Assembly: GCA_963745075.1 (NCBI GenBank)
Contig: CAVUWV010000013.1
Coordinates: 1-64,000, forward strand
Reading direction: 5' to 3'
DNA length: 64,000 nucleotides
Origin: Candidatus Hydrogenedentota bacterium
Lineage (GTDB): Bacteria > Hydrogenedentota > Hydrogenedentia > Hydrogenedentales > SLHB01
Shown: in pieces, positions 51,959 to 64,000 of the stretch
Layout of the letters: each line of letters begins with the position of its first letter
How positions within the stretch are numbered: the stretch's first letter is position 1
Translations under genes and position numbers: made by a program
The notes under the pieces: generated by a model
Told to the model about the DNA's origin: nothing
Database searches by the model: none
What the model saw: the letters and a program-made list of their open reading frames with translations, nothing else

Positions 51959-52759
51959 GTGACGACGGAAGAAACACCCGAAGAAGTGCACGAGACCCCG
52001 GAGGTAGCCGATCCGGAGGCCGAGGAAGCGCCGGAAGCAGCCGAAGCGCCGGACACGGCCGGCGTTGTGGAGGAATCCGCTACGTCTGAGCCGTCCGAGG
52101 CTGCCGAGGCGTCCGAAGCATCCGAGACCCCGGAAGCGGAGGAGCCTGTCGAATCGTCCGAATCTGCGGAGACGGACGACGAAGAATCTCCGGAGCCGGC
52201 GAAGAAGGATGACGGGATTAAGCGCCGGTGGTATGCCCTGCACGCATACTCAGGCCAGGAAGCGAACGTCAAGAAGAATATCTTGATCCACGCCGAGCAA
52301 GGCGGTCTTCAGGACGTCATTGGCGACGTGTTGGTGCCCATGGAAGAGGTTGCCGAGATCAAGTCCGGTGAGAAGAAGATTTCCAAGCGGAAATTTTTCC
52401 CGGGCTATGTGTTAATTCAGTTGCCCGCGCATCCGGAGCGCAATCCGGAACTGTGGCACCTGATCAAGGAAACGCCGGGCGTCAGCGGGTTCATTGGCTC
52501 CCGGACCGTCCCGGTTCCCCTGGAAGACGGGGAGGTTGAGGCAATTCTCGAGGAACTCCGCGGAGAACGCGAGCGGCCGAAACCGAAAGTCAAATTCGAG
52601 CACGGCGAGCGGGTCAAAATCATTGACGGGCCGTTCTCGAATTTCCTGGGTAATATTGATGAGATTAACGCCGAACGCGGCACGCTCAAGGTGATGGTGG
52701 AAATCTTCGAGCGCCTCACCAGCGTCGAAGTCGAGTTCTGGCAAGTTGAGAAAATGTAA
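51959..52759 (+). CDS. nusG: Transcription termination/antitermination factor NusG with an acidic N-terminal extension
   Basis: WYALHAYSGQE, KFFPGYV, TPGVSGFIG, KOW IIDGPF. Confidence 0.95.
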   Translation: MTTEETPEEVHETPEVADPEAEEAPEAAEAPDTAGVVEESATSEPSEAAEASEASETPEAEEPVESSESAETDDEESPEPAKKDDGIKRRWYALHAYSGQEANVKKNILIHAEQGGLQDVIGDVLVPMEEVAEIKSGEKKISKRKFFPGYVLIQLPAHPERNPELWHLIKETPGVSGFIGSRTVPVPLEDGEVEAILEELRGERERPKPKVKFEHGERVKIIDGPFSNFLGNIDEINAERGTLKVMVEIFERLTSVEVEFWQVEKM

Positions 52760-52807
52760 CGCGGCCCCACGGGCCATATCACGGTAGAGGACAAACGGAG
52801 CACTATC

Positions 52808-53254
52808 ATGGGTAAGCCAGCCAAAGGCAAGGGCCGGAACGTCATGGCACAGATTAAGTTGCAGTGCCCTGCCGGCCAGGCCAATCCGGCCCCGCCGGTC
52901 GGTCCGGCATTGGGCCAGCACGGGGTCCAAATTATGGACTTCTGCAAGCAGTTCAATGAACGCACGAAAGATCAGCAGGGCCTGATCATTCCGGTCGTTA
53001 TTACGGTCTTCGAGGATCGGTCGTTCACGTTCATCACCAAGAGCCCGCCCGCGGCGGTGTTGCTCAAGCGTGCGGCCAAGCTGGCGAAGGCGTCCGGTGA
53101 ACCAAACAAAACCAAGGTGGGTTCGGTCACCAAGGCCCAACTCAAGGAAATTGCCGAGTTGAAGCAGGCGGACCTGAACGCCGCGTCTGTCGAAGCCGCC
53201 ATGCGCATGATTGCGGGTACCGCCCGCAGCATGGGATTGACGGTCGAAGTCTGA
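52808..53254 (+). CDS. rplK: 50S ribosomal protein L11
   Basis: [22 protein letters not shown]. Confidence 0.97.
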
Positions 53255-53329
53255 TCGTATTGTTGATGCTGGCGCACCCGGCCCGGGCGCGCCGGTTGGA
53301 GGATGACCGGGATTTGTTCCGGTCTTGAT

Positions 53330-53359
53330 GTGGGAGGGCCGTAGGCCCGTCGGAACCAC
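53330..53359 (+). promoter_or_regulatory. Putative L1-binding autoregulatory RNA site before rplA
   Basis: GTGGGAGGGCC-GTA-GGCCCGTCGGAACCAC: GTGG/CCAC stem, GAG internal loop and inner helix next to the rplA SD; resembles the Firmicutes-type site upstream of rplA. Confidence 0.65.
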
Positions 53360-53373
53360 AGGAGATTCGAATC

Positions 53374-54087
53374 ATGGGAAAGTTGAGTAAACGTACCTCC
53401 GCGCTGCAGGACAAAATCGGCGATAAACAATTCTACTCCCTGCCCGAAGTTGCTGCCAGCGTCAAAGATTGCGCCACCGCCAAATTCGATGAAACTATTG
53501 ACCTCGCCTTCTATTTGGGCGTTGATCCGCGCCATGCCGAGCAAATGGTTCGTGGAACGGTTTCTCTCCCGCATGGTACCGGTAAGCCGGTGCGCGTCAT
53601 CGTTTTTTGCAAACAGGCCGAGCAGCAGAAAGCGGCGGAAGATGCCGGCGCGGAAGAAGTCGGCGCCGAAACCCTCGTTGCCAAAGTGAAAGAGGGATGG
53701 ACCGATTTCGACGTTGCGGTTGCCGCGCCCGACATGATGGGTGAAGTGGGTAAACTGGGTAAGATTCTCGGACCCCGGGGCCTGATGCCCAGCCCGAAGG
53801 CCGGAACCGTGACGCCGAAGGTCGGTGAAGCTGTTGCGGAGATCAAGAAGGGCAAGATCGACTTCCGCGTCGACAAGAACGCGAACATGCATGTGCCGGT
53901 CGGCAAGGCATCGTTCACCGCGCAGCAGATCGAAGAGAACGCCGCGGCCGTGATTCAGTCGGTTCTGAAGGCCCGCCCCGCGGCCTGCAAAGGAACGTAC
54001 CTGAAAGCCTGCACGATGAGCAGCACGATGGGTCCGGGGTTCAAGATGGATCCGGCGGCGCTGACGTCGACCTACAAATCGAACTAG
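53374..54087 (+). CDS. rplA: 50S ribosomal protein L1
   Basis: [36 protein letters not shown]. Confidence 0.97.
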
Positions 54088-54195
54088 ACTACCCCTCTCC
54101 AATTTCGACATCGCGATGGACGCGGTGGGAGAACTGAACCACGGTGCACGTGGGGTGCACCTCACCGTCCTCGGGGCAGGAGCGCGAAACGAATT

Positions 54196-55353
54196 ATGAG
54201 CAAGTATCTCTTTACATCGGAATCCGTGACTGAAGGCCATCCCGACAAGGTTGCTGACGCGGTATCCGATGCGATTCTGGACGCCATGATCGAACAGGAT
54301 CCCGATAGCCGGGTCGCGTGCGAAACCCTGGTAAACACCGGGCTCTGCGTGGTGGCCGGCGAGATTACGTCCAAGGCGGTCGTTGATGTTCCGGCGGTCG
54401 TGCGAAAGGCGATTACGGACATCGGCTACGTTGGCGGCGATTCCGGTTTCGATGGAAATACATGTGCGGTATTGGTAAACCTCGATAAACAGTCGCCCGA
54501 TATTTCCATGGGCGTCACGGCAACCACCGACCGCGAACAGGGCGCCGGGGACCAGGGGATGATGTTCGGTTACGCCACGAACGAAACCCCCGAACTGATG
54601 CCCATGCCGATTCTGCTGGCTCACAAGCTGGGGAGCCGGCTTTCGGAACTGCGCAAGAACGGGACCTTGCCCTGGCTCCAGCCGGACGGCAAGTCGCAGG
54701 TCACGATCGAGTATGTGGACGGAAAGCCGGTTCGCATCGATACGGTGGTGATCTCGAATCAGCATTCCGATAGCGTTACGCAGGACGAAATTCGTAAGCG
54801 CATTATCGAACAGGTGATTGAACCCATCTTGCCGAAGAACCTTGTCAACGGCGAGATCAAGTATCACATCAATCCGACGGGACGTTTCGTGGTGGGCGGT
54901 CCGGTTGGCGACAGCGGCGTCACCGGCCGCAAAATCATCGTCGACACCTACGGCGGCATGGGGCACCACGGCGGCGGCGCCTTCAGCGGCAAAGACCCGT
55001 CCAAAGTCGACCGTTCTGCCGCGTACATGGCGCGGTATATCGCGAAGAACGTGGTTGCAGCGGGAATTGCCGACCGGTGCGAAGTCCAGTTGGCTTATGC
55101 CATCGGCGTTGCGAAACCGGTTTCGATCAACGTGACCACCTTCGGAACAAACAAGATTCCGGAAGAGAAAATTGAAGCGATCCTGATGGAACACTTCGAT
55201 TGCCGTCCGGCCAGCATCGTCAAGACTCTCGATCTGAAGAAACCCATATTCCGGAAAACGGTCGCCTACGGGCACTTTGGGCGCGAAGATCAGGGATTCC
55301 GTTGGGAAGAAACCGATCAGGCAGATGCCCTGCGGAAGAAGGCGGAGCTTTAG
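54196..55353 (+). CDS. metK: S-adenosylmethionine synthetase
   Basis: [52 protein letters not shown]. Confidence 0.97.
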
Positions 55354-57573: not shown

Positions 57574-59229
57574 ATGATTCGGATTCGGTCTTTCCGGTTG
57601 CGTATCACGCTTCTGTCGGTTCTGCTTTCCGGCGTCGTGCTGATCGCTTTTGGGGCGTGGAGCTGGTCCCTGATCCGACGAATCAGCCTGGACCGGATCG
57701 ACGACGAAATCCGCGGTATCGGACACCTCCACCTTTCCGAACATCGGCCTCCGGAACACTGGAACACCGTCGGGGAGTCTCTCGCATCCATTCGGTTCGG
57801 AGACCAACAAAAGGGCGAGCCGTTTATCCTGCTCGTGAAGAATCGGCGTAACGAAACGCTTCATGTGTCCCCGGGATGGCCCGCGGACCTTCCTGCGTCT
57901 GAGTTTCCTGCACCGACAGGCGATCTGCCGCCGCCGCTGGAAGGTCCACCCGACGGGCCACCGCGCGCCGGAGCACCCCTAGAGCCCCGGCGGGGTCCTC
58001 CACCCGGCAATCGCGGGCCGGGTTTTCGACCTAACCCGATGGACGGCGAGGGACAACCCATACGCCCGCCTGGGGGTTTTCAAGGCCCTCCAGGGCCGGA
58101 AGGTCCGCCCAATGGGAGGCGACCCGAAGACCAAGGCCCGCGTCGCGGACCCGGATTTCGCGGCGGTCCGCCGCCACCGATTCCGTTGCCGGTTAATCCT
58201 CCGGTAATCGTAACGCGTATTGCGGACGGCAAGGAGTGGCGCATCGGGATCATGGGCAACCCCGAAGTGACCATGGTACTCGGGATCAATCTTGACCGGT
58301 ACAACGCGGAGATGGGCCGTGTCAGAACCGCCTTCCTCCTGGCGTTGCCGGCCGCGCTTTTACTCATTGCCGCCGGCGGCTGGTTTCTGGCGCAACGGGC
58401 GCTGCGGCCGGTGGCGCGTCTCACGCGAACCGCGGAGGGAATCACCGCGCGCGGATTGGATCAACGCATCCCACCGTCGGACGACGACGTCGAGTTCGTC
58501 CGACTGATCGGCGTGTTCAACGAAATGCTGGATCGATTGGAGAAAAGCTTTCAACAAGCGGTGCGATTCAGCGCGGATGCTGCGCACGAACTCAAAACGC
58601 CCCTGACGATTTTGCAGGGGGAATTGGAACAGGCGCTTCAGACCTGCCCACCCGGTTCACCGCAACAGCAATCCTACAATAAGCTTTTGGAAGAAGTGCA
58701 GCGGCTGAAGAGCATTATGCGTAAGCTCTTACTGCTATCGCTGGCGGATTCGGGACAACTCAAGTTGACGTTTGAACCGCTCGACCTGAGTTCGATCCTC
58801 GAATCCGTCTACGAAGACACCCAGATTCTCGCTCCCCAGCTCTCCGTACAGCGCGATATTGCCTCCGGCGTGTGGGTCAATGCCGACCGGGATTTGCTGC
58901 GTCAGGTGGTGCAGAACTTGACCGGAAACGCCATCAAATACAACCGGAAGGGCGGCACGATCCACTTCCGCCTGCGTTCAGACGGACAGGCCGTGCGCCT
59001 GTCTATCGCCAATACGGGCAAAGGAATCCCCGCGACGGAACGCGAGCGTATTTTCGATCGGTTCTATCGCGCCGACCCCTCGCGCAATCGCAAGGTGGAA
59101 GGGGTTGGCCTCGGTCTGAGTCTGGCAAGGGAAATCGCGCGAGCCCACCACGGCGATCTGCAACTGGACGACACGCGGGACGGCATCGTTGCATTCACGC
59201 TAACCCTGCCGGTATTCAACCAAACGTAG
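57574..59229 (+). CDS. HAMP-domain sensor histidine kinase (CusS/CzcS-like) with a Pro/Gly-rich periplasmic insert
   Basis: Two TM helices, HAMP, AAHELKTPL, NAIKYN, IFDRFYR, GLGLSL. Confidence 0.92.
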   Translation: MIRIRSFRLRITLLSVLLSGVVLIAFGAWSWSLIRRISLDRIDDEIRGIGHLHLSEHRPPEHWNTVGESLASIRFGDQQKGEPFILLVKNRRNETLHVSPGWPADLPASEFPAPTGDLPPPLEGPPDGPPRAGAPLEPRRGPPPGNRGPGFRPNPMDGEGQPIRPPGGFQGPPGPEGPPNGRRPEDQGPRRGPGFRGGPPPPIPLPVNPPVIVTRIADGKEWRIGIMGNPEVTMVLGINLDRYNAEMGRVRTAFLLALPAALLLIAAGGWFLAQRALRPVARLTRTAEGITARGLDQRIPPSDDDVEFVRLIGVFNEMLDRLEKSFQQAVRFSADAAHELKTPLTILQGELEQALQTCPPGSPQQQSYNKLLEEVQRLKSIMRKLLLLSLADSGQLKLTFEPLDLSSILESVYEDTQILAPQLSVQRDIASGVWVNADRDLLRQVVQNLTGNAIKYNRKGGTIHFRLRSDGQAVRLSIANTGKGIPATERERIFDRFYRADPSRNRKVEGVGLGLSLAREIARAHHGDLQLDDTRDGIVAFTLTLPVFNQT

Positions 59230-59665
59230 TCCGCATTCCTCCCAGCGCGGCGCAGCCGCAACCAAATCCGAAATCCGAAGCACGAAATTCGAAACAAGTC
59301 CCAATGTTCCAAATGAGGAATGACCAAAACGGTTCTGCCGAGCCGAGACCCGCAAAACAACTTTGCATGGACAGGTATTCACATGCATGCGTATTCCGGC
59401 GATTCCGTCACATGCAGCCCCGGATGGGGCGACCCGAGCCTAGTCACGCCGCAGGCGTGATGGAGCGAGGTACGAGCGGAACCCTGGGTCAGACGAGCAC
59501 CCTCTCCACACAGCCCCCGAATGGGGGCGTAGGAACTCGATTGCGTACCGGGAACTATCATCTGACCATCGAACATGGCTACCAAGCATTTGCGAAGGAT
59601 CTTCACAACGTTGACGGATAGGGACATCGTCCGCATTTCTTCCAGCGCGGCGCAGCCGCAACCAA
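59229..59665 (+). repeat. 37-bp direct repeat pair exactly 400 bp apart (59229-59265, 59629-59665), first copy followed by heptamer repeats
   Basis: GTCCGCATTYCTYCCAGCGCGGCGCAGCCGCAACCAA, 35/37 identical; AAATCCG-AAATCCG-AAGCACG-AAATTCG at 59264-59291. Confidence 0.85.
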
Positions 59666-59880
59666 GACTTTTCTCATCCTCATCCACCGATTGCAGGAAG
59701 ATAATTTGCCCGCAGAAGGTCGCGGACGGACGGAAGAGATTTTGGTCCATAGTTATCACAGCCATCCGGAATCCGCGATCGAAAATCCCATGCGCGTCAT
59801 CGTGAGACGGGGACTACGCCGCGGGCGTGGTTGTTGGTGGCGAGAACAGTCGGGCTGAGTTGTAACGTAATTATTCTCGA

Positions 59881-59928
59881 AATCGGGATCGATCCCGATT
59901 ACGAGCACGAGCACGAGTACGAGCACGA
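59881..59928. repeat. 20-bp perfect palindrome followed by an (ACGAGY)n hexamer tract
   Basis: AATCGGGATCGATCCCGATT, then ACGAGCACGAGCACGAGTACGAGCACGA. Confidence 0.8.
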
Positions 59929-60400
59929 CAAGGGCAAAGCGCCGCTATTGGTACAAAACGACTTAGGGGAGCCTGTTCTTAGGAAAAGTTTGCAAAGGCT
60001 AGCGCGTGAAAATGCAGAATAACTTCAACGTTTTTGACGAATAGTGTCACCGCCCGAAAGGCGTTGTCGTGTGGATCACGCCATGGCGTGATGAGAAATG
60101 CTTTCGAGAAAAGTACTCGTTTTCGCACTTCGTACTCGGATTGTCGAGTAGGAAACAATGCGGTTTAGCCATCTCCTAGTGCCCTTTGGGGATAGCCTTT
60201 TGGAATTTGCACCTATCTCCGCATATTTGCGGGAGAGCACATTACTAACTCGTTGTGCAGTCGCAGGTAGACGATTCGAGAACTTGAGGTTGATCTAGTC
60301 AACCTTGCCGTAGCTTTCGGCAGAGTCTCTAGGGCCGATTCAAAACTGAGGACCGCGGAGGCGTTGTCGACCCCTGCTGGAGGAAGGCACTAAAGAAACT

Positions 60401-60466
60401 ATTTAATTGACAGATTTAATTGACAGATTGGCCTTATTCGCGTAAAAAGGAAAGCGGGGGTATAAT
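60401..60466 (+). promoter_or_regulatory. Promoter/operator region of the Ubl operon: tandem 13-bp repeat containing TTGACA, plus TATAAT
   Basis: ATTTAATTGACAG x2 (60401-60426); TATAAT at 60461-60466; spacing is not canonical, so the exact promoter is unresolved. Confidence 0.45.
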
Positions 60467-60592
60467 GCGAGAACGTCATTTGATAAATGGGCTATCTCCT
60501 CTCTTGAAGCGGGGGCATATAATAAATCCATTCAAACCATATTTATGTCTAAGCCGTTATGTAAATATATATATATAGGAGCTAAACCCGCA

Positions 60593-60883
60593 ATGCCCGA
60601 AGAAAACATGAACGTCGAGGTTTGGGACGCAACTGGAAATAAGAAGATTACGGCAAGTCTTCCTGCCCACGAGCCTGTCAACAGGATTATGGTCGTTCTT
60701 GTGGACAAAATGAATCTGCCTCGTCACAGTCCCGATGGCCAGTTACTGAGTTACAAGTTCAACCATAAGGCTAGTGGTCGCCAACTCCTCGATGACGAGA
60801 CCCTGTCGCATGCCGGTGTACAGCCTAATGACATTCTGCGAATCCAACCCGAAATTACTGCTGGGGGATTCTGTAAGCAATGA
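60593..60883 (+). CDS. Ubiquitin-like protein (YukD/EsaB-like beta-grasp) ending ...PEITAGG-FCKQ
   Basis: AGGAG SD; 96 aa; 'GRQLLDDETLSHAGVQPNDILRI' parallels ubiquitin '[23 protein letters not shown]'; GG near the C-terminus; ATGA overlap with the E1 gene. Confidence 0.85.
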   Translation: MPEENMNVEVWDATGNKKITASLPAHEPVNRIMVVLVDKMNLPRHSPDGQLLSYKFNHKASGRQLLDDETLSHAGVQPNDILRIQPEITAGGFCKQ

Positions 60884-62064
60884 AGCATCTAGACTTCGGG
60901 TCTGATGAGACCGGGACGGGAAGATTTAGTCGTTTCGAACTGATCAATTGGTGGGACCAGCAACACTTGGAGCAAGCTCACGTGCTTGTTGTGGGAGCCG
61001 GGGCTCTCGGTAACGAGATCATCAAGAACTTATGCTTGTTAGGAGTCGGGAATATTTTTGTGGCGGACTTCGACATAGTCGAGAATTCCAATTTGTCCCG
61101 GTCCGTGCTCTTTCGGGAGGCCGACAATGGGAAACCCAAAGCCGTCGTGGCCTGCGAGCGGGCAAAAGGTATTTACCCAAAGGTCAGAGTCCAACCATTC
61201 TCTGGCGACGTTGTGTATGACTTGGGGCTTGGCGTCTATCTTTGGGCCAACGTCATTCTGGGCGGGCTCGATAATCGGGAGGCCCGAGTATCGATGAATG
61301 GTGGTGCAGCTTTCGCCAGGAAACATTGGATTGACGGCGCAATTGAAGTATTGGACGGTGTCATGCGCGTGTTCTATCCCCAAGAAGGAGCGTGCTATGA
61401 GTGTACGATGAACGAAATCGACTGGAAAATTGTCGAGAGTAGACGTTCATGTGCTCTGCTCACTAGAGATCAAATGATGTTGGGGCACGTACCTACAACT
61501 CCGACAACGTCGAGTATCATCGCGGCTCTTCAAGTTCAGGAGGCGGTTAAGTTACTCCATGGTATTCCCGTCATGGCTGGCGAGGGTATCCGTTACACTG
61601 GAATGCAAAACGAGTTCACGCAAGTGCGGTATCCGCGCAAGCCGGAGTGCTATGGGCATGATACGTACCAGGCACTTCGCATGACGGGCCGAAGCACAAC
61701 AGATACAACCGTTCAGGATATCATTAATCTTGCAAGGTGTGAGCTCGGTGGGGACGCGGTAGTTGGATTGAGTAGAGATATCGTGTGTGCACTCGACTGT
61801 CCAATATGCCATAAACGACATAGTATCTTTACTTCGTTGGGTAAGGTTAGAGAAGAAGACGCACTGTGCGAAGAGTGCGGAGAGCTATGTGTCCCAGATA
61901 CATTGACAACCCTCGGGCTGAATGATGACTTAGATGACAAAACTCTAGCGCAGATTGGCGTGCCTCCTTTCGACGTATTAACAGCTCGCAATGACGAAAG
62001 GTCTGTTTCCTATCTATTCGACGGCGACGCGGCGCTAGTGCTGGGTGGATTGGAGGTGAACTGA
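60880..62064 (+). CDS. ThiF/E1-family Ubl-activating enzyme with a C-terminal Zn-ribbon extension
   Basis: GAGALG, SNLSRS, GLDNREAR, CYEC and CYGH Zn ligands, RRSC candidate catalytic Cys, PTTPT, extra CPIC/CEEC. Confidence 0.92.
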   Translation: MKHLDFGSDETGTGRFSRFELINWWDQQHLEQAHVLVVGAGALGNEIIKNLCLLGVGNIFVADFDIVENSNLSRSVLFREADNGKPKAVVACERAKGIYPKVRVQPFSGDVVYDLGLGVYLWANVILGGLDNREARVSMNGGAAFARKHWIDGAIEVLDGVMRVFYPQEGACYECTMNEIDWKIVESRRSCALLTRDQMMLGHVPTTPTTSSIIAALQVQEAVKLLHGIPVMAGEGIRYTGMQNEFTQVRYPRKPECYGHDTYQALRMTGRSTTDTTVQDIINLARCELGGDAVVGLSRDIVCALDCPICHKRHSIFTSLGKVREEDALCEECGELCVPDTLTTLGLNDDLDDKTLAQIGVPPFDVLTARNDERSVSYLFDGDAALVLGGLEVN

Positions 62065-62888
62065 TGTCGAAATCTGATTCTGGAGACAAACCTTCAAGCA
62101 AGCTTGACTATATGGATACGGATACCACGAGATTGCAAGAGCAACCTTTTCCTGTGTCGATTCGTACCACGTTCCGAGTCTATTTCGAGGAGAACGCGTA
62201 TAGGGCCATGATGGAGCACGCGACAACGACCACGGAAGTCGAACTCGGAGGAGTGCTTGTCGGTCGCGTACTTCGTGACGCGGTTGGCCCCTACCTGCGA
62301 ATCGTAGGGAGCATTCCAGCGGAGGGCGCACAAATCGGGATGTACCGAATCACATTCACGCACGAAGCGTGGAATCACATCAATCAAGTTCGAGATGAAA
62401 ATTTTCCAGAAGACACTCTCGTCGGTTGGTATCACACCCACCCGGGCTTCGGTATCTTTCTGTCAGAAATGGATAGTTTCATCCAGGAGAATTTCTTTAA
62501 TCAGCCATTCCAAATTGCGGTGGTTATTGACACAAAGTCTGAGGAGGAAGGCTGTTTTATCTGGGAGTACGGAAGACCAACCCCTGCAAGCTCCTATTGG
62601 GCGGGGTCCAGAGAAGTTACATTGGCTGGAGATGGCGCGGGCAGGCCTGCCGTACGCATACCACCGACTAAGTTTGAAAATGTCGCAAATGGGAGCGAGG
62701 GTAGGCGCAAGTCGAATCCTATAATCTCCATCTATATAGCTACGGTAGTACTAGTATTATTGGTGATAGCGGGCACGACATGGAGTCTCCACGCTAAACT
62801 ATTGAGCCAACAAGAAACCCTAGAATCGGTGCAAAGTCACCTGAGAGAGGAATCGAGACGGCAGCGGCAGATAACCGCGCTACCTTAG
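62064..62888 (+). CDS. JAB/MPN+ (JAMM) metallopeptidase followed by a TM helix
   Basis: EVELGGVLVG; VGWYHTHPGFGIFLSEMD (intact E...HxH-x7-S-x2-D); TM IISIYIATVVLVLLVIAGTTWSL. Confidence 0.9.
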   Translation: MSKSDSGDKPSSKLDYMDTDTTRLQEQPFPVSIRTTFRVYFEENAYRAMMEHATTTTEVELGGVLVGRVLRDAVGPYLRIVGSIPAEGAQIGMYRITFTHEAWNHINQVRDENFPEDTLVGWYHTHPGFGIFLSEMDSFIQENFFNQPFQIAVVIDTKSEEEGCFIWEYGRPTPASSYWAGSREVTLAGDGAGRPAVRIPPTKFENVANGSEGRRKSNPIISIYIATVVLVLLVIAGTTWSLHAKLLSQQETLESVQSHLREESRRQRQITALP

Positions 62889-62905
62889 CAAAAGAAGTCT
62901 CTACT

Positions 62906-63256
62906 GTGAATCAGTCTCTGGAGAGTGTCGACACGACGATCGCCTCGAATTGGAACGCTACGAAAGACCGATTTCGACAACTAGAACAACACCTAAATGA
63001 AGTGAACAAAGACGTAGCAGCTAGCCGGAGCATGTTAGATGACAGGGTATCGGTGCTGAAGTCCAAAATGGACCAAGATAAGGCCGATATCCTACAACAG
63101 CAAAGTCGAATGATGGAGTCCATGGACTCTTGGTTAACCCGAGCCACCAGTTGGCAAACTGGCTGGCCGTCACCGGATTGGGAATGGCAACTGTGGCCGT
63201 TCTCGCCTCTCCTCGCTCCAATGCCTGACACGCCTCCGAGTACGGAAACCGAATGA
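62906..63256 (+). CDS. Coiled-coil segment, probably the frameshifted C-terminus of the JAB-TM protein
   Basis: Heptad-like pattern; this frame is open upstream into the JAB ORF (...GIETAAADNRATLAKEVSTVNQ...). Confidence 0.55.
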   Translation: MNQSLESVDTTIASNWNATKDRFRQLEQHLNEVNKDVAASRSMLDDRVSVLKSKMDQDKADILQQQSRMMESMDSWLTRATSWQTGWPSPDWEWQLWPFSPLLAPMPDTPPSTETE

Positions 63257-63290
63257 GAGTTGACTGGGAATCAAATACGGGGGAAGCGCA

Positions 63291-64000
63291 ATGGTAGATA
63301 TCCACGTCTCATCGGATGAATTAAACAGTCCGCGTGTGGAAGAAATCATCGCCATTGAAAGTGCAGGCAAAAATCAAGACAGTGTTGCATTTCTTGAGGA
63401 CGTTGAAAGGCCGTTTCACGAAAATCCGAGCTTCTACTATAGCGTAGCGTCTGGGATCATGGCCTTTATCGCATGGATTATCGTGGAACCACTTATCAAC
63501 GAGGGACAGTATAGGAGTCCGTTCGTCGGCTTATTGTTCTTTATGGTTCCCGCAGCCTTGATCGGACTTGCTCTGGGCATGGTTTACGGGATATCCAACC
63601 GAAATCCGTCCCAAGCGGCGTACTGCGGTGGAGTAGGATTCGGCTTGGGAATTCTACTCGCTATTCCAACAAGTCTCCTCGGTGGGTTTGTTTACGCAGA
63701 TAGGTTCAGCGTTTGTGTTTTCTTTAATCGATACGCCAATCGCAAGCATTCGCGATTTTCCTTCCAGTAGCCTTCGTGATTCAGATGTGTACTCGATCTT
63801 GTGCCTGGGCAATCGTGGCAGCCGCAGCTAGCCTACCACTTGAAATCGCTTCTGAGAAGCAAGAAACTGGCGGGAGTAGGTCTCATGGGCGGCATTGTTG
63901 GAGGAGCTGCTGGAGGACTCTTATTTCGATCCGGTGTCTTTTCTTTTTATGCCAAATGCCACAGAAGCGTGGCTAAGCCGTATGGTCGGGTTAAATGCAG
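63291..64000 (+). CDS. Polytopic Gly-rich membrane protein of the Ubl operon, frameshifted and cut by the window end
   Basis: Several TM helices in 63291-63770; continuation in other frames (RSCAWAIVAAAA..., GVGLMGGIVGGAAGGLLF...). Confidence 0.65.

Follow-up and report, generated by a model that had tools for sequence, protein, structure and literature searches.

The question raised by the end of the window, a stretch of 64,000 nucleotides from a Candidatus Hydrogenedentota bacterium (assembly GCA_963745075.1, contig CAVUWV010000013.1), is whether the genes that start at position 60,593 encode a bacterial ubiquitin-like conjugation system and, if so, of what kind, in what state and for what role. 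An earlier, sequence-only reading of positions 60593..64000 had proposed a horizontally acquired, membrane-associated system with a ubiquitin-like protein (Ubl), an E1 and a JAMM protease, and with E2, RING or FHA partners perhaps lying further along. The window opens a 225,584-base contig (C13) of the genome studied (G000), of which it makes up the first 64 kb, so that the same numbering serves for both. Extension along this contig with profile searches reveals that the operon does run past the window: nine genes occupy 60,593-68,418, four of them inside the window, and the expected E2, RING and FHA partners are indeed encoded beyond 64000, as identified with Pfam (Table 1). The set comprises the Ubl, the E1, a JAB protein with a transmembrane segment (TM), a membrane-FHA protein, three membrane proteins with a Prok-RING (in one of them joined to an HtrA-like protease), an HPN-type E2 and a DUF2752 protein, and the translational coupling noted earlier is present (an ATGA overlap at 60880-60883 and TGATG at 62062-62066). 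By this gene content the operon fits the prokaryotic RING tri-ligase Ubl operons predicted in 2011 by Burroughs, Iyer and Aravind, a prediction with which we compared it through the descriptions in citing papers (PMC4197634, PMC10557695, PMC7159879, PMC3417536, PMC11354881).

The small protein is modeled as a beta-grasp fold, in agreement with the earlier proposal; its AlphaFold2 (AF2) model has a predicted local distance difference test score (pLDDT) of 85, and all 49 Foldseek matches listed are ubiquitin, SUMO or NEDD8 entries. The di-Gly noted in it earlier proved to be incidental and is not conserved. The invariant motif is instead (P/A)EITAG, found here as PEITAG at 60848-60865, ending in Gly91 and followed by the five-residue tail GFCKQ. 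EITAG is present in 78/78 homologous Ubls, which share a mean column identity of 68%, and the residue that follows is variable (n = 78: Ala 22, Gly 16, Ser 11, Arg 9, stop 7, others 13); among the Ubls of a metagenome set, described below, the chain ends at the EITAG Gly in 17/78. The combination of an invariant EITAG and a variable tail implies that the Ubl is processed, and by analogy the JAB protein is predicted to remove the tail after Gly91; Type II Bil systems are described as having a JAB protein that cleaves a variable Ubl tail (PMC10557695). Natural fusions of the Ubl also occur, with a Zn-ribbon in L040 (9211-9900) and L055 (9164-9877) and with the E1 in L087 (9416-11164), and may be compared with eukaryotic ubiquitin fusions.

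The adenylation and Zn motifs reported for the E1 were confirmed (GAGALG, NLSR, DNRE and CYEC/CxxH, plus two further CxxC), together with its candidate catalytic Cys: the Cys of RRSC is C191 (61450-61452), invariant in 37/37 aligned E1s, and RRSC(A/N)LL is found in 75/79 homologues. The E1 model has a pLDDT of 87, dropping below 50 at residues 189-193 around this Cys. Residues 18-262 can be superposed on MoeB and ThiF (Z about 29), and the match extends further on SAE2, Uba3, Uba1 and Uba7 to about residue 383, through their ubiquitin-fold domain (UFD); the alignment with SAE2 (9dqb_B) covers residues 20-383 (Z 28.7, 314 residues, root-mean-square deviation 3.9). The C-terminal domain aligns with the UFD of eukaryotic E1s, and an extra CxxC pair is present. 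The E2 matches 94 sequences in the PDB, all 60 of those listed being conjugating enzymes, with an alignment that covers both the HPN and the catalytic Cys. The JAMM protease was likewise confirmed, with a Pfam JAB match and a metal motif of a Glu plus HTH..S..D across 62238-62474; HxH..S..D is present in 67/68 homologues.

Table 1. Features of the Ubl operon and its surroundings on contig C13 (numbering common to contig and window).
Feature	Coordinates	Strand	Evidence
Ubl, YukD-like ubiquitin fold, 96 aa	60593..60883	+	Pfam YukD 27.2 bits vs cut-off 27; AF2, Foldseek
E1, 394 aa, intact; adenylation domain, Cys191, C-terminal UFD-like domain	60880..62064	+	Pfam ThiF 1e-48
JAB/MPN+ peptidase, one TM (62730-62783), coiled-coil-like tail, frameshift near 62851	62064..63256	+	Pfam JAB 1.3e-08
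TM-FHA, about 6 TM, C-terminal FHA	63291-64355 (in-window 63291..64000)	+	Pfam, topology, alignment
IHVSSDEL, TM-FHA N-terminus, candidate Ubl-docking motif	63300..63323	+	homologue counts, complex model
RING 1: Zn-ribbon/Prok-RING/Zn-ribbon/2-TM, frameshift near 64535	64363-65099	+	
RING 2: Prok-RING_1 (C4HC3, 65160-65279)/Zn-ribbon/2-TM, frameshift near 65359	65103-65719	+	
Prok-RING/3-TM/HtrA-like protease, frameshifts near 65819, 65889	65768-67014	+	Trypsin_2 5e-18
E2, HPNIAPHSIC at 67309-67338, Cys-rich tail, frameshift near 67580-67595 after E2 domain	67051-67934	+	UQ_con 3.4e-11
DUF2752, intact	67891-68418	+	Pfam DUF2752 5e-17
Insertion, 9.3 kb	59230-68545 (in-window 59230..64000)	.	flanking-gene adjacency in same-genus genomes, GC
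Left flank: histidine kinase gene	end at 59229		
Right flank: 431-aa gene, convergent	68546-69841	minus	

Pfam assigned to the operon a YukD-like Ubl, ThiF, JAB, FHA, Prok-RING_1 twice, Zn ribbons, Trypsin_2, UQ_con and DUF2752, while the third RING was detected with a profile made from homologues; searches of NCBIfam returned no match for the Ubl, JAB, small RING, E2 or DUF2752 proteins. Prok-RING_1 (PF14446), a family that we take to be linked to the 2011 prediction, scores above its cut-off once (31.9 bits vs 29.1), the other two RING copies being broken here and whole in L009, the closest full-length relative. In the homologues the RING is of the C4HC3 kind in 8/8, 44/45 and 36/38 cases; prokaryotic RINGs are described as C4HC3 (PMC11354881).

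Hydropathy places TMs in six of the nine proteins (5-6 in TM-FHA, in 56/62; two each in RING 1 and RING 2; 2-3 in the RING-protease and mostly 2-3 in DUF2752), with E1, E2 and Ubl mostly devoid of them, and the JAB gene itself encodes a membrane protein, with one TM in 62/68 homologues. The 'polytopic membrane protein' described earlier is the N-terminal piece of TM-FHA, a gene broken by frameshifts. The FHA pattern is matched in 57/64 homologues, and among the matches listed GS stands in place of GR in all 44; the FHA of this copy likewise has GS. The canonical phosphothreonine-binding FHA motif carries GR, and this replacement makes phosphothreonine binding doubtful. A search of the ESM Atlas with the membrane domain of the L009 orthologue returned only unnamed clusters, below 0.9. 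In the RING-protease the His, Asp and Ser motifs of the HtrA-like domain are all kept in this copy, and the protease of the L009 orthologue resembles DegP/DegS models, under their cut-offs. The averaged profile of 32 RING-proteases has three TMs; basic residues precede TM1 and also fill the loop from TM2 to TM3, a distribution which, by the positive-inside rule, suggests that the RING lies inside and the protease outside.

A single-E1 query found no related loci, whereas an alignment of 37 E1s, searched against genome contigs, recovered at least 550 relatives, counted in the first 599 matches to its pattern. The best 80, which form the genome set, are nearly all from Planctomycetota, plus one each from Sumerlaeota, Victivallales and Kiritimatiellae. 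Gene content was counted in the 48/80 E1-anchored loci with at least 7.5 kb downstream: JAB is present in 47, TM-FHA in 46, RING in 43, E2 in 41, trypsin in 38, DUF2752 in 32 and all nine types in 31, with a gene order that is almost fixed among homologous loci. A second set of 80 Ubl-anchored metagenome loci, some of which may duplicate the genome set, has an E1 in 55/58 loci with room for one, and those of at least 7 kb (14/80) contain E1, JAB, TM-FHA and RING in 14, E2 in 13, trypsin in 10 and DUF2752 in 6. The catalytic motifs are likewise retained in homologues, with HPN..C in 41/43 E2s and TNxHV and GNSGG in 40/44 and 41/44 trypsin domains. This conserved synteny with E2, RING and FHA downstream supports the proposal of a membrane-associated Ubl conjugation system unlike Bil. 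The novelty implied by that proposal is not supported, as operons of this type had already been predicted in 2011 and are frequent among Planctomycetota. Intact operons are available in L009 and in the cultured Lacipirellula limnantheis I41 (L057). The family also includes a different subtype in L006 (G008:C15:55000-74999), with the order trypsin, Ubl, E1, JAB, TM-FHA, RING-DUF4190 and E2-TPR, and a minimal version in L076:5881-10867 (Ubl, E1, JAB, RING-protease, E2 and DUF2752, without TM-FHA and the two small RINGs), which would be useful for reconstitution.

Tri-ligase operons are reported from Planctomycetes, Actinobacteria and Acidobacteria, where they are sporadic and often absent in close relatives (PMC4197634), and the RING-containing families are referred to as uncharacterised (PMC10557695). 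The present operon resembles them in bringing Ubl, E1, E2, C4HC3 RING and JAB together in one mobile operon, and differs in that this copy sits in a phylum with few such operons and has frameshifts in the assembly. Type I/II BilABCD also has separate Ubl, E1, E2 and JAB proteins, and in its Ubl a conserved Gly is followed by a short tail, which JAB removes; however, as described in PMC10557695, Bil has four genes in the order Ubl-E2-DUB-E1, a CEHH-type E2, an E1 with inactive and active adenylation domains (IAD+AAD) and without a UFD, no RING, and a location in defence islands. Here the order is Ubl-E1-JAB-...-E2, the E2 is HPN-type, the E1 is single-domain with a UFD-like domain, and there are three RINGs and six membrane proteins; the PADLOC match to BilD is only 3e-07. 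The Ub-E1-E2-RING-Rpn11 operon of Caldiarchaeum subterraneum is likewise a eukaryote-like cascade of five parts, whose E1 resembles Uba3 and whose JAB resembles Rpn11, but is archaeal and has a RING-H2 (C3H2C3) ligase, and its accounts in PMC4197634 and PMC11354881, as far as they concern us, do not describe membrane or protease partners. Bub and Type II CBASS Cap2/Cap3 are also mobile operons of bacteria that encode machinery of the E1, E2 and JAB types (PMC11601596). In the account of the same source Bub forms Tyr/Ser oxyesters and has DUF6527, whereas here the Cys is conserved in both E1 and E2 and Pfam finds no DUF6527 in the operon; the CBASS E2-E1 fusion acts on a CD-NTase, and neither a CD-NTase nor an E2-E1 fusion is present in the insertion, where the PADLOC E1-E2 matches cover only the N-terminal ATP-binding part. 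The YukD of type VIIb secretion differs in its linked FtsK-type ATPase and WXG100 genes, of which the insertion has none. By its gene content and features the operon does not belong to Bil, CBASS, Bub, the sulfur relays or type VIIb secretion. Of the bacterial ubiquitin kits compared, this operon type is the most eukaryote-like, with a UFD-bearing E1, an HPN E2, RING E3s and an Rpn11-like deubiquitinase.

The proposed horizontal acquisition is supported by an empty site in relatives. The kinase and 431-aa genes that flank the operon adjoin in G001, G002, G003 and G005, that is, in 4/5 same-genus genomes, and this adjacency sets the bounds of the insertion at about 59,230-68,545; in the fragmented G004 the two genes lie on separate contigs. 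An E1 match was found in 1/60 relatives and in 0/5 same-genus genomes (72-99% complete), and the Ubl is present in 2/135 genomes of the phylum, G000 counted, with no second copy of the Ubl, E2, JAB or RING found in G000. A tree of 37 E1s, hand-chosen from about 80 available, makes this E1 sister to the Sumerlaeota copy L009 (support 100/99). Grouping it with the copy of G008, from the same family, is rejected (approximately unbiased test, p-AU 0.0002; the G008 row is long-branched), which suggests two separate acquisitions in the phylum. The operon has a G+C content (GC) of 0.507 against 0.590 for positions 1-59229, remaining at about 0.50 across 60-68 kb, and operon-sized windows equally low in GC number 50/3284 genome-wide, located only here, on C22 and in the last part of C36 (about 300-398 kb). 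The earlier reading had the direction of this contrast right and overstated its size, as the line chosen to represent the host (16321, 45/60) belongs to the 11 with the highest G+C out of 986 from the host; line means are 35/60 for the host and 30/60 for the operon. Judged from these sequence comparisons, the operon is a horizontally acquired, recent insertion in a phylum where its type is rare, and it provides a clean example of such a transfer. No integrase or transposase was seen among the ORFs (open reading frames) of the insertion, and no att-like terminal repeats were found at its ends, where the edge repeats are genome-wide REP-like elements.

The two ends of the insertion each carry such host repeats (window 59240-59350 and 59880-59940; C13 68470-68520), which recur elsewhere in the genome in about 50 and 12 copies, and a 42-nt direct repeat is found at 59224 and 59624. 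Upstream of the Ubl gene, at window 60402-60427, a tandem TTTAATTGACAGA repeat with a 13-nt period precedes a TATAAT at 60461; together they form a possible operator or promoter, with a spacing that is not canonical for sigma-70, and a promoter scan upstream of the operon gave nothing above chance. An ORF of 365 aa that resembles a transposase, by eye of the IS630 kind, lies 6 kb downstream of the insertion (C13 74308-75405).

The state of this copy is complicated by the assembly, in which six of the genes are frameshifted, contrary to the intactness that had been implied. Frameshift-aware alignment to intact orthologues places at least 10 frameshifts (10-12 counted) in 6/9 genes, at the positions listed in Table 1 and, for TM-FHA, near 63730, 63851, 63921 and 64064. 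The JAB break was seen against L013 and L015, its region not being reached by the L009 alignment, and RING 1 has two more breaks against L036 only. We think these frameshifts are probably consensus errors rather than decay. The essential rpoB occupies three frames in G000 (C8:415741-419522) and is whole in G003, rplB being whole in both genomes, and a hybrid histidine kinase that is 83% identical has 10 frameshifts in a span of about 720 bp; the split rpoB and this hot spot indicate clustered indel errors in the assembly, denser at such spots than in the operon. The operon alignments contain no in-frame (nonsense) stops and no large deletions, and the catalytic motifs are all kept. Ten real indels would normally come with a few nonsense changes, given general mutation spectra.

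The rival account, in which small indels, at least 10 of them, inactivated this copy after its acquisition and left a decaying pseudo-operon, is separate from the function of the family and seems to us the less likely one, with several observations in its favor. The same method found 0 frameshifts in six control operons of about 45 kb. For a control within the genome, 213 ORFs from 17 stretches of G003 yielded 123 orthologues in G000, which together contain 32 stops and, spread over 26 genes, 44 frameshifts; once 20 alignments with stops were dropped as probable shadow frames or over-long starts, 28 frameshifts remained in 15/103 genes over 134 kb, some of them near N-termini and possibly spurious. 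Against this background of 0.21 per kb, the 10 frameshifts in 7.8 kb of the operon are about six times the mean, and the 8 control orthologues on C13 are free of frameshifts. Furthermore, the operon keeps 451/496 near-invariant columns (91%) vs 96-98% in six control loci, a deficit tempered by E1 differences that are common to this copy and its closest relatives. As consensus error is the likeliest source of the frameshifts, the operon in the living cell is probably intact. The locus is a genuine, recently inserted member of a predicted and apparently untested family, in an error-prone assembly; a search of the literature, with subscription journals mostly uncovered, found no bench study of this operon type. 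Its frameshifted state in the assembly makes this copy a poor starting point for study. The split rpoB also means that other split or frameshifted genes in G000 are possible consensus errors; a further example is G000:C24:483000-493000, with 13 frameshifts in three conserved genes, the kinase hot spot included.

With gene content, catalytic motifs, folds, synteny and insertion observed as described, we infer the chemistry, topology, targets and biological role as follows. The membrane-anchored JAB would trim the Ubl after Gly91; the E1 would then adenylate Gly91 and load the Ubl onto Cys191, and its UFD-like domain would recruit the HPN-type E2, to whose Cys the Ubl would pass. The three membrane-anchored C4HC3 RINGs would bring E2~Ubl beside membrane substrates, and JAB may also take the tag off again. 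The RING-3TM-HtrA-like protein could serve as a link between events outside, at the protease, and ligation inside, at the RING. In the simplest view the whole would combine a soluble activation arm with a second arm, in the membrane, that ligates the tag to membrane proteins and removes it from them. We give about even chances to the view that the operon is a complete E1-E2-RING Ubl cascade at the inner membrane face which tags membrane proteins and so serves quality control of the envelope or stress signalling. Several points weigh against it: the role rests on topology, the HtrA-like domain and the absence of defence neighbours; the topology itself comes from hydropathy and charge only; 7/48 long loci have no E2 match and 10/48 no trypsin; a patchy, mobile distribution and the Bil/CBASS precedent would, by analogy, favor a conflict role; and such operons have been proposed as selfish elements resembling restriction-modification systems (PMC3417536). 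RING-dependent conjugation in a bacterium, if shown, would bear on the origin of E3 ligases and on membrane quality control.

The strongest of the other functional readings is anti-phage defence, in which phage entry or assembly at the membrane would trigger Bil-like transfer of the Ubl to phage or host membrane proteins. The tested relatives, Type II CBASS and Bil, have been described as defensive (PMC10557695, PMC11601596), and related tri-ligase modules are placed in predicted conflict systems (PMC7159879). The rarity of the operon in the phylum, its probable double acquisition there and its low-GC insertion point in the same direction. The analogy drew no support from the genes that neighbor the homologues. 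The flanking sample comprised 306 ORFs from 77 loci (ORFs shorter than 100 aa being left out), of which 130 were scanned with PADLOC and 129 with NCBIfam, with 47 unscanned. At 1e-12, 5/130 match in PADLOC, namely four generic Ser/Thr kinases and one partial mad3, and the 129 are metabolic or transport genes or unassigned, with one IscS beside ErpA and no integrase at 1e-25. Most homologues also have no GC contrast; they are compositionally resident, with a median GC difference of 0.001 over 52 loci and a value more than 0.03 lower in 4/52. The high conservation of the Ubl and the lack of any match in a tblastn search of plasmids and phages further argue against defence. The genomic context is hence neutral to non-defensive, but because it amounts to an absence of evidence from a clade-biased sample, defence, although unlikely, keeps a sizeable minority share of our belief.

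A shared motif gives a further lead on how the envelope cascade might be organized. The pattern phi-x-I-[T/S/D/N]-x-x-[D/E]-L occurs at the N-terminus of 57/62 TM-FHA proteins and just after the RING in 37/39 RING-proteases; the regular expression was set on these same sequences (shuffle maxima 6 and 3), and with the pattern fixed it was found in later metagenome sequences in 25/27 TM-FHA proteins and 10/11 RING-proteases (shuffle maxima 3 and 1). At five other sites it is near chance (2/68, 0/46, 0/46, 0/45, and 5/43 in E2 tails, equal to the shuffle maximum), and a looser form is enriched at E1 N-termini (54/78 vs a shuffle mean of 25 and maximum of 39). In this copy the RING-protease version deviates. 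A model of Ubl (1-91) with a 42-residue motif peptide scores 0.44 vs 0.01 for the best control, which we regard as weak support: runs agree on at least 91% of contacts, the partner pLDDT is 61-62 and no interface is reported. In calibration the mark was reached by 116/157 solved and 2/215 mismatched pairs, with only 18/157 solved pairs at or below 0.60, yet both of the passing mismatches. As a lead only, the motif on the FHA scaffold and the RING-protease may dock the Ubl non-covalently, in the manner of a SUMO-interacting motif (SIM). The FHA domain as partner of the motif was set aside, since L076 keeps the motif without a TM-FHA gene; in L006 the motif is also found in the E2 tail and the protease. 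A more elaborate version of the envelope cascade, which we hold to be possible but rather unlikely, is a receptor-like machine, or one akin to endoplasmic-reticulum-associated degradation, in which an outward HtrA-type protease and a cytoplasmic RING E3 are joined in one polypeptide and the SIM-like motif organizes the complex by docking the Ubl on this E3 and on an FHA scaffold; if true, bacteria would have a RING E3 cascade in which the Ubl is also read non-covalently.

It is improbable that the Ubl is mainly a non-covalent, YukD-like assembly factor of a membrane complex, binding FHA or motif subunits. The marginal YukD match and the FHA without its usual Arg are compatible with this, and B. 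subtilis YukD is described as binding the FHA domains of YukB non-covalently (bioRxiv 2025.01.24.634720). On the other hand, EITAG is invariant with a disposable tail, the catalytic Cys of E1 and that of E2 are retained along with the metal ligands of JAB, the operon has no FtsK ATPase or WXG100 gene, and L076 keeps the enzymes without TM-FHA. A ThiS/ThiF or MoaD/MoeB sulfur relay is almost certainly wrong, for although MoeB and ThiF can both be superposed on the adenylation domain of the E1 and databases label its homologues 'ThiF family', the E1 scores under every NCBIfam ThiF/MoeB cut-off, the operon has E2, RINGs, JAB and a UFD-like domain, the Ubl has no C-terminal GG, ThiG lies on another contig (C10), and the 129 flanking ORFs of at least 100 aa scanned with NCBIfam include no thiamine or molybdopterin synthesis enzyme, neither ThiG nor a Moa enzyme.

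Two features elsewhere in the genome were seen in passing. The only match to the proteasome family in G000 is a 190-aa frame on C19, which may be HslV. In the window at 51959-55353, with genes named by eye, nusG with a long acidic N-terminal extension is followed by rplK, rplA and directly by metK, which stands in place of rplJ-rplL-rpoB; rpoB sits on C8.

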